Shown piece by piece: positions 3,398 through 4,041 of a DNA stretch of 4,041 bases. The DNA is from a virus (lineage: Duplodnaviria; Heunggongvirae; Uroviricota; Caudoviricetes). The DNA lies in IMG/VR virus record IMGVR_UViG_2663762839_000013, positions 1-4,041 of that record; one strand, written 5' to 3'. Numbering within the stretch: position 1 is the stretch's first letter; each line of letters opens with the position of its first letter. The translations under genes and the position numbers were made by a program. A model generated the notes under the pieces. The model was not told where the DNA came from and searched no databases. It worked only from the letters and a program-made list of their open reading frames with translations.

Positions 3398-3527
3398 GAA
3401 CGTGTGGTAGGCCATATTTGCATCTCCGGCCCTAGCCTGATGAGCGGTTACTTTGGCGACCAGGTTTCACAAGACGAGATTGCCGCGACGGGCTGGTTAG
3501 ACACCGGGGACCTCGGTTATCTGCTGC
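3398..3527 (+). pseudogene. Internal fragment of an AMP-dependent synthetase/ligase (adenylate-forming enzyme) gene
   Basis: Plus-frame translation ERVVGHICISGPSLMSGYFGDQVSQDEIAATGWLDTGDLGYLL contains the characteristic G-x-x-G-Y-...-G-W-x-x-T-G-D-L-G motif region of acyl/aryl-AMP ligases. There is no start context, and the reading frame loses family resemblance after about 3527. Confidence 0.45.
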
Positions 3528-3657
3528 ATCCAGCGTATGCTCAACAGGAACGCGAATCATGGTATCTGCCAGCCATTCGACGTAATCCATATCACGGGTG
3601 ATCGACGGATAACGGAAGTCGATATCCAGCACATTCGCCAGTTCATCGAAGTATTGT
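3528..3657 (-). other. Unidentified protein-coding fragment (minus strand)
   Basis: Minus-frame translation [46 protein letters not shown] has protein-like composition but no start or stop context. It is bounded by abrupt changes in coding strand on both sides. Confidence 0.3.
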
Positions 3658-3917
3658 TCCGCTCTCTGGCGAGATCGTCAATATCGAAGACGTGCCGGAT
3701 GTCGTTTTTGCGGAAAAAATCGTTGGTGATGGTATTGCTATCAAACCAACGGGTAACAAAATGGTCGCGCCTGTAGACGGCACCATTGGTAAAATCTTTG
3801 AAACCAACCACGCATTCTCTATCGAATCTGATAGCGGCGTTGAACTGTTCGTCCACTTCGGGATCGACACCGTTGAACTGAAAGGCGAAGGCTTCAAGCG
3901 TATTGCTGAAGAAGGTC
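3658..3917 (+). pseudogene. crr: Internal fragment of crr (PTS glucose-specific EIIA component), roughly residues 36-121, lacking both gene ends
   Basis: Plus-frame translation [85 protein letters not shown] matches E. coli EIIA-Glc as I recall it, including both active-site His contexts (NHAF, VHFG). Upstream and downstream sequence diverges abruptly from crr at about 3657/3658 and 3917/3918. Confidence 0.75.
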
Positions 3918-4041
3918 TTTATCAAACCAAATATGGCGTAAACGCGGCAGTGGTTTGTTCACCAGATTGGCTTTGCCGACATTGGGGAGATTAATAAAGT
4001 CTTTAAAATTATGATAACGACCGCCGGGGACGATGGAGTCG
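3918..4041 (-). other. Unidentified protein-coding fragment (minus strand), runs off the window
   Basis: Minus-frame translation [41 protein letters not shown] is open across the whole segment and protein-like; identity not recognised. Confidence 0.25.

Follow-up and report, generated by a model that had tools for sequence, protein, structure and literature searches.

The window, the 4,041-nt stretch of DNA analysed here, consists of two parts. Positions 1-3388 are recognizable as the late region of an stx-less, Stx-type lambdoid prophage of E. coli, read on the minus strand. The last 653 nt (3389-4041) form a row of four short pieces, each from the interior of a different, unrelated gene of the chromosome. 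The features are listed below in the order of their positions; J0 to J4 denote junctions, and FAAL stands for fatty acyl-AMP ligase.

1-216, minus strand: internal fragment of a lysozyme (endolysin) gene, nt 138-353 of the 534-nt gene, running off the window start
211-216: junction J0, a private deletion of 750 bp with a 6-nt microhomology, ATACCC
288-557, minus strand: DUF826 phage gene, 89 aa; the exact protein is common in E. coli, and relatives share the gene context
595-777, minus strand: DUF1378 phage gene, 60 aa; the exact protein is on record, and relatives share the gene context
913-2838, minus strand: gene for a 641-aa NanS-p-type SASA carbohydrate esterase of Stx-type lambdoid prophages
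3060-3250, minus strand: full-length STnc100 sRNA (Rfam RF02076, 139 bits against a gathering score of 47)
3167-3415, minus strand: spurious 82-aa ORF across J1, an exact match to UniParc UPI0005EBC221
3326-3388, minus strand: truncated phage tRNA-Arg gene, with the 3' 63 of 77 nt kept and the 5' 14 nt gone
3388/3389: junction J1, from the phage tRNA gene to the FAAL fragment, 0 nt of microhomology
3389-3526, plus strand (sense): FAAL fragment, nt 1171-1308 of 1689
3524-3526: junction J2, from FAAL to ptrA, overlap of 3 nt, CTG
3524-3658, minus strand (antisense): ptrA (pitrilysin) fragment, nt 1157-1291 of 2889, 100% identity
3658: junction J3, from ptrA to crr, overlap of 1 nt
3658-3917, plus strand (sense): crr (EIIA-Glc) fragment, nt 75-334 of 510
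3917: junction J4, from crr to ppk1, overlap of 1 nt
3917-4041, minus strand (antisense): ppk1 fragment, nt 855-979 of 2067, cut by the window end

The phage part of the window

The exact 641-aa esterase protein, with the Pfam domains DUF1737, SASA and DUF6645, is found in intact prophages and is carried by many E. coli assemblies; the relatives annotate it as 'SASA family carbohydrate esterase'. In the assemblies shown with flanks, its neighbourhood shows the usual order of genes: Q, a methylase, tRNAs, nanS-p, DUF1378, DUF826, a holin, DUF1327, lysozyme, Rz and Nu1. Positions 211-3388 of the window are 99.8% identical to the relatives, from which they differ by 5 substitutions and 1 indel, none of them inside the esterase gene. 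The first 216 nt are 100% identical to positions 9379-9594 of one relative, L007, and the relatives' counterpart of this piece is annotated as lysozyme, with the Pfam domain Phage_lysozyme.

The STnc100 sRNA is placed between the phage tRNA gene and nanS-p, and belongs to the normal phage sequence, outside the mosaic. Terminator-like hairpins were seen around it at 3032-3053 (plus strand), 3071-3090 (minus strand) and 3294-3311 (minus strand). Stx phages carry stxAB between the phage tRNA genes and nanS-p. The window has no toxin genes in this interval (2839-3325), and the phage is therefore one with the late-region architecture of the Stx type that lacks stx.

The longest contig with the exact 641-aa esterase is merely 2-5 kb long in 56 of 80 index blocks. 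We interpret these short contigs as a sign that in short-read assemblies repeats often flank this piece of phage DNA, in line with the end of a contig at the tRNA cluster. At the right ends of three relatives (L006, L009 and L010) the prophage is a remnant, with Nu1, the small terminase subunit, cut to 74 aa. The truncated Nu1 directly adjoins intS'/argW/yfdC in all three, and this places the phage lineage at the argW site.

A private deletion in the lysis cassette

All relatives have 750 bp at J0 that the window is missing, corresponding to positions 8629-9378 of L007. The deletion takes out the genes for the holin and DUF1327 as well as the initial 137 nt of the lysozyme gene, and its break coincides with the holin start codon. 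Neither the contiguous stretch 1-600 nor the J0 join is present in 5,426 complete E. coli genomes. An overlap of 6 nt is improbable under random joining (p = 0.0013) and the junction links two same-strand points of one phage; J0 therefore looks like a genuine microhomology-mediated deletion that arose in vivo. A prophage with this deletion would be lysis-defective.

The phage sequence breaks off inside a tRNA gene

Phage similarity ends abruptly at 3388, within the tRNA-Arg gene, and the mosaic begins at 3389. The retained part of the gene (3326-3388) aligns to 7119-7181 of the tRNA-Arg gene of the relative L005, which spans 7119-7195, and gives a partial tRNA match in Rfam (27.5 bits). An intact tRNA at the border between phage and mosaic was considered and rejected, since ARAGORN finds none and the tRNA-Arg gene is truncated. 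The gene broken here has up to 12 copies per genome in the set of 5,426 complete E. coli genomes. Related short-read contigs break nearby too, one of them (L010) beginning 237 nt past 3388.

In the 82-aa ORF that crosses J1, the first 9 codons are antisense FAAL sequence and the remainder is phage sequence, whereas its natural homologues (P0002 and P0006) read on through the intact tRNA region. As UniParc holds this junction-crossing ORF, the mosaic was already part of a deposited, annotated record and did not come about by later scrambling. Of 21 further ORFs of the window that were looked up as exact proteins, two gave a match, both of them common phage proteins, and a contig search with the 82-aa ORF gave no match.

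Four internal fragments of host genes

Each of the four fragments is 99-100% identical to its normal single-copy locus, and in 5,426 complete E. coli genomes these loci are separate. The FAAL fragment is 100% identical to 5 genomes and is single copy in 4,112 genomes. Near-perfect copies of four single-copy genes side by side are, on these identities, far beyond chance. The fragments measure 135-138 nt (FAAL), 132-135 nt (ptrA), 259-260 nt (crr) and at least 124 nt (ppk1), and none includes the start or stop codon of its parent gene. Two private SNPs, a synonymous one in the crr fragment at 3862 (GGT to GGG) and a Phe-to-Leu change in the ppk1 fragment at 3989 (TTC to CTC), occur in none of the 5,426 complete genomes. 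They are the tail's sole departures from known alleles, and both lie in its distal 180 nt. Apart from these two positions, the alleles of strain 14EC033 are those of all four fragments.

An initial annotation, made from the sequence alone, had described a mosaic of unrelated gene fragments with sharp joins at 3398-4041. Separate mapping of the four pieces, with exact overlaps of 0-3 nt, bears out the mosaic and moves its start 9 nt upstream to 3389, inside the phage tRNA gene. The pieces are gene interiors without start or stop, as had been proposed; the AMP-ligase and crr were named correctly, and the two minus-strand pieces that had been left as unknown can now be identified as ptrA and ppk1. 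The alternation of strands that was reported holds for gene sense but not relative to the chromosome, where the orientations are plus, plus, plus and minus. Nor do the lengths (about 124-260 nt) follow the regular unit of roughly 130 bp that was suggested: the fragments are of a similar size class, with no true period.

The joins and their absence elsewhere

The exact overlaps at J1-J4 are 0, 3, 1 and 1 nt. Random blunt joining is expected to give 0.67 nt per junction, and the observed sum of 5 nt has p = 0.16 against random blunt joins. Within 6-15 nt of the joins, similarity between the parental flanks is at chance level (p = 0.2-0.3). Chance-level overlaps and flanks argue against joining driven by homology or by k-mers, and the behaviour of J1-J4 fits that of sequence-independent blunt joins. 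No repeats, linkers, adaptor-like sequence, promoters or terminators were seen at the fragment borders.

Two short repeats were noted in this part of the window. The 9-mer TCCGGCCCT spans J1 at 3383-3391 and recurs at 3425-3433 in the FAAL fragment, 42 nt downstream. The 11-mer TATCAAACCAA is found in crr at 3739-3749 and again in ppk1 at 3920-3930, 3 nt past J4. Both were rejected as a cause of the joins, since by rough estimate their frequency is near chance (borderline for the 11-mer) and their register is wrong.

Two adjacent fragments together, or J1 alone, were found in 0 of 5,426 complete E. coli genomes. A contiguous match over the mosaic, which the initial annotation had held to be incompatible with a chimera, is likewise found in none of them. 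J1 and J2, the two junctions scanned for as exact patterns, had no match in the GTDB species representatives, in IMG/VR or in the JGI metagenome contigs. Phage and plasmid collections gave ordinary crr or tRNA matches only, with nothing spanning two adjacent fragments.

One apparent second instance, GenBank OR851408.1 (L021, positions 1-1919, 'Salmonella phage S.Kent 1-2-1'), proved to be ordinary contiguous Salmonella host DNA from ptsI-crr. This record is a SPAdes contig (NODE_536) with a coverage of 2.7, and its end lies 1 nt beyond the end of the window's crr fragment. We judge the proximity of the two ends to reflect either coincidence (roughly 0.5%, by a rough estimate) or a shared fragmentation hot spot.

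Chromosomal positions of the donor genes

On the chromosome of strain 14EC033 (4,639 kb), argW and the four donor genes are located as follows.

3,202.6 kb: argW
3,298 kb: crr
3,376 kb: ppk1
3,688-3,691 kb: ptrA
3,866-3,868 kb: FAAL gene

The search segment by segment, which had been expected to lead to distant loci, did return four different chromosomal genes, but these are not scattered. All four donors lie within a 570-kb arc, or 12.3% of the chromosome (p = 0.0074 for four random points, in a post hoc test on four points), and each is found clockwise of argW, 95-665 kb away. By analogy with the relatives L006, L009 and L010, the prophage of the window may be integrated at argW too; if so, no donor is more than 665 kb from it, and all are on its clockwise side. 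Prophages that replicate without excision (escape or in situ replication), cos phages such as lambda and Fels-1 included, amplify and stress the flanking host DNA (PMC8008629, PMC8575938). Such replication could enrich prophage-flanking fragments in a DNA preparation, although the distance of 665 kb and the one-sidedness strain this idea.

Origin of the mosaic

The mosaic anatomy, the blunt joins, their absence elsewhere and their presence in a deposited record are direct observations. The 653-nt tail is probably a library or assembly chimera, and neither a functional nor an inherited element of the genome. Shear pieces of about 125-260 bp from the chromosome of the same strain would have been blunt-joined to one another and attached to one end of a longer piece of the prophage. 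The likeliest route would be insert-to-insert ligation during library construction, captured in one long read of about 700 nt or in one clone end; concatenation of tiny contigs in silico without spacers would be a less likely one. The assembler may then have kept the unique-looking extension, since the true path past 3388 enters the phage tRNA cluster, which occurs repeatedly in E. coli genomes carrying several lambdoid prophages and is a usual place for contigs to stop. We infer both the ligation or assembly origin of the tail and its single-read nature.

Several observations are in keeping with such a chimera. They include the chance-level overlaps at J1-J4, the unmarked borders, the confinement of the joins to one record and the break in a multi-copy tRNA gene. 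A single allele background, that of 14EC033, in all four fragments is expected if they came from the same DNA preparation. The tail has about the length of one long read and is placed at the window end, and the private SNPs at 3862 and 3989, both in its last 180 nt, are compatible with error at single-read depth. Fusion reads are documented to arise when inserts are blunt-ligated to each other ahead of the adapters (bioRxiv 10.1101/245241), and ligation-based long-read libraries of E. coli contain up to 3.17% chimeric reads (PMC8495745). Against a chimera stands the clustering of the donors in a 12.3% arc, which random ligation does not predict and which needs either chance or an over-representation of prophage-flanking DNA. 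The same 4-kb piece also carries a second private rearrangement, J0, with the look of an in vivo event, and four consecutive small inserts on one molecule make an unusually long ligation chain.

Other routes to such a structure were tried and rejected. Restriction or proximity ligation (3C/Hi-C) is at odds with the five junctions, which by eye have no common, reconstituted or duplicated site of 4-6 bases. A misjoin in a De Bruijn graph needs shared k-mers, and the overlaps are merely 0-3 nt. Contigs of length 2k-1 formed from SNP bubbles do not fit the private crr SNP, which is off-centre in its fragment. A chain of reverse transcription over mRNAs does not fit the mixed sense of the fragments.

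We regard it as rather unlikely that the mosaic is a real complex rearrangement that took place in vivo. The starting point would be a double-strand break or a collapsed replication fork within the prophage, such as might arise when an induced prophage replicates in situ (escape replication). Repair would then have run through a series of brief template switches (MMBIR/FoSTeS-like) or through end-joining in which several small chromosomal fragments were captured. Duplicative copies of 125-260 nt would thereby have been left beside the broken tRNA gene, along with the microhomology deletion in the lysis cassette. Prophages replicating in situ are known to cause amplification of, and stress on, the chromosome around them (PMC8008629, PMC8575938), and an in vivo origin is favoured by the position of the four donors in one 570-kb arc, at most 665 kb clockwise of argW (p ~0.007), although the prophage position is taken from relatives and the clustering test is post hoc and has four points. 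The microhomologies at J0 (6 nt) and J2 (3 nt) would suit template-switch chains, and the mixed orientations are as in such chains; loss of the holin and of the endolysin 5' end is of a sort that domesticated prophages show; and the J1-spanning ORF does exist in a deposited record. However, J1, J3 and J4 overlap by 0-1 nt without similarity of their flanks, which is atypical for MMBIR, and none of the 5,426 complete genomes has the junctions. Moreover, each piece would be a two-copy repeat and hard for short-read assemblers to cross. We know of no precedent for a four-step chain in natural isolates of E. coli. The full scenario, a genuine in vivo scar at argW produced by at least four low-homology template switches or captures of 125-260 nt each from loci up to 665 kb clockwise, with a microhomology deletion disabling the lysis cassette, is unlikely.

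Deliberate scrambling or splicing after retrieval, giving a synthetic decoy absent from public records, would account for the clean, blunt joins and the similar size of the pieces. It is nevertheless very improbable, because the 82-aa ORF across J1 is identical to UniParc UPI0005EBC221, so that at least this junction pre-exists in a deposited record. Of the two origins put forward in the initial annotation, an assembly chimera or an artificial or scrambled sequence, the former thus ranks first here, and the latter is contradicted as far as scrambling after deposition is concerned. Most improbable of all is a dedicated system of fragment capture or memory (CRISPR-like, integron-like or retroelement-mediated) that stores pieces of host genes beside the prophage: the likeness, similar-sized foreign pieces arrayed beside a mobile element, is superficial, the fragments have no repeats, attC-like sites or linkers between them, the window is without integrase, Cas or reverse transcriptase genes and the neighbourhoods of intact relatives hold ordinary lambdoid genes, the mixed sense excludes simple cDNA of mRNAs, and the array, which breaks up a tRNA gene, has no counterpart in the collections searched. 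In all, the feature is most likely not real biology, and a chimera, as first proposed, is its most probable explanation.

Implications

If the mosaic is an artefact, which we think likeliest, a contig end in a deposited E. coli record is chimeric, and the value of the finding is one of housekeeping. At least one spurious protein from it, the 82-aa UPI0005EBC221, has made its way into archives of sequences and databases of clusters, and scans for captured host fragments beside prophages should count such contig-end mosaics as false positives. If the mosaic did arise in vivo, it would be a rare natural case of complex rearrangement through several low-homology steps in E. coli, linked to a prophage and drawing on the flanking 0.6 Mb. 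It would then be a bacterial counterpart of chromoanasynthesis or of multi-fragment break-capture, and template switching or fragment capture during in situ replication of prophages would become directly testable.

Comparison with known systems

Template switching by MMBIR/FoSTeS typically involves microhomology of at least 2 nt at every switch. Complex rearrangements with short templated insertions of this kind were reportedly described by Hastings, Ira and Lupski in 2009, and amplification junctions of E. coli reportedly by Slack and colleagues in 2006. The window resembles these in its short, presumably duplicative segments, drawn in either orientation from loci within hundreds of kb, and in the microhomology at J0 (6 nt) and J2 (3 nt). 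The proximity of templates that marks such events is also seen, with at most 570 kb between any two donors and at most 665 kb between a donor and argW, given the prophage position suggested by the relatives. It differs in that three of the five junctions overlap by 0-1 nt. To our knowledge, MMBIR/FoSTeS chains have not been documented in natural E. coli genomes.

Capture of fragments at double-strand breaks is known from yeast. In E. coli, alternative end-joining (A-EJ) is said to depend on RecBCD and LigA, reportedly from the work of Chayot and colleagues in 2010, which is cited in 10.1101/605246 and PMC9504249. Like the joins in the window, A-EJ connects ends with little or no microhomology, and unrelated DNA can in principle be inserted at the break; unlike them, it typically gives deletions. 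We know of no description of four fragments captured in a row in bacteria.

Specialised and lateral transduction also join phage DNA to host DNA from the chromosomal side on which the prophage lies (PMC8575938). Their known junctions are at prophage ends or pac sites and involve contiguous host DNA, whereas here the join is within a tRNA gene of the late region and leads to four non-contiguous snippets from loci 95-665 kb away. CRISPR and integron cassette arrays share with the mosaic the serial arrangement of foreign pieces of similar size. However, in a CRISPR array direct repeats separate the acquired pieces, and a leader and cas genes are nearby; the mosaic has no repeats between its fragments, which are 4-8 times the length of a spacer, and neither the window nor the neighbourhoods of the relatives contain cas genes. 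Integron cassettes are complete promoterless ORFs bounded by attC sites, next to intI and attI, while the fragments are internal gene pieces without start or stop, and the window has neither attC-like inverted repeats nor an integrase gene.

Chimeras formed by insert-to-insert ligation differ from the mosaic in that the chain seen here is long, with four inserts, and that its donors are clustered in 12% of the chromosome. In such chimeras small fragments ligate preferentially, and the mosaic is like them in being made of unrelated pieces of the same preparation, joined bluntly in random orientation without homology and found in one record (10.1101/245241; PMC8495745).
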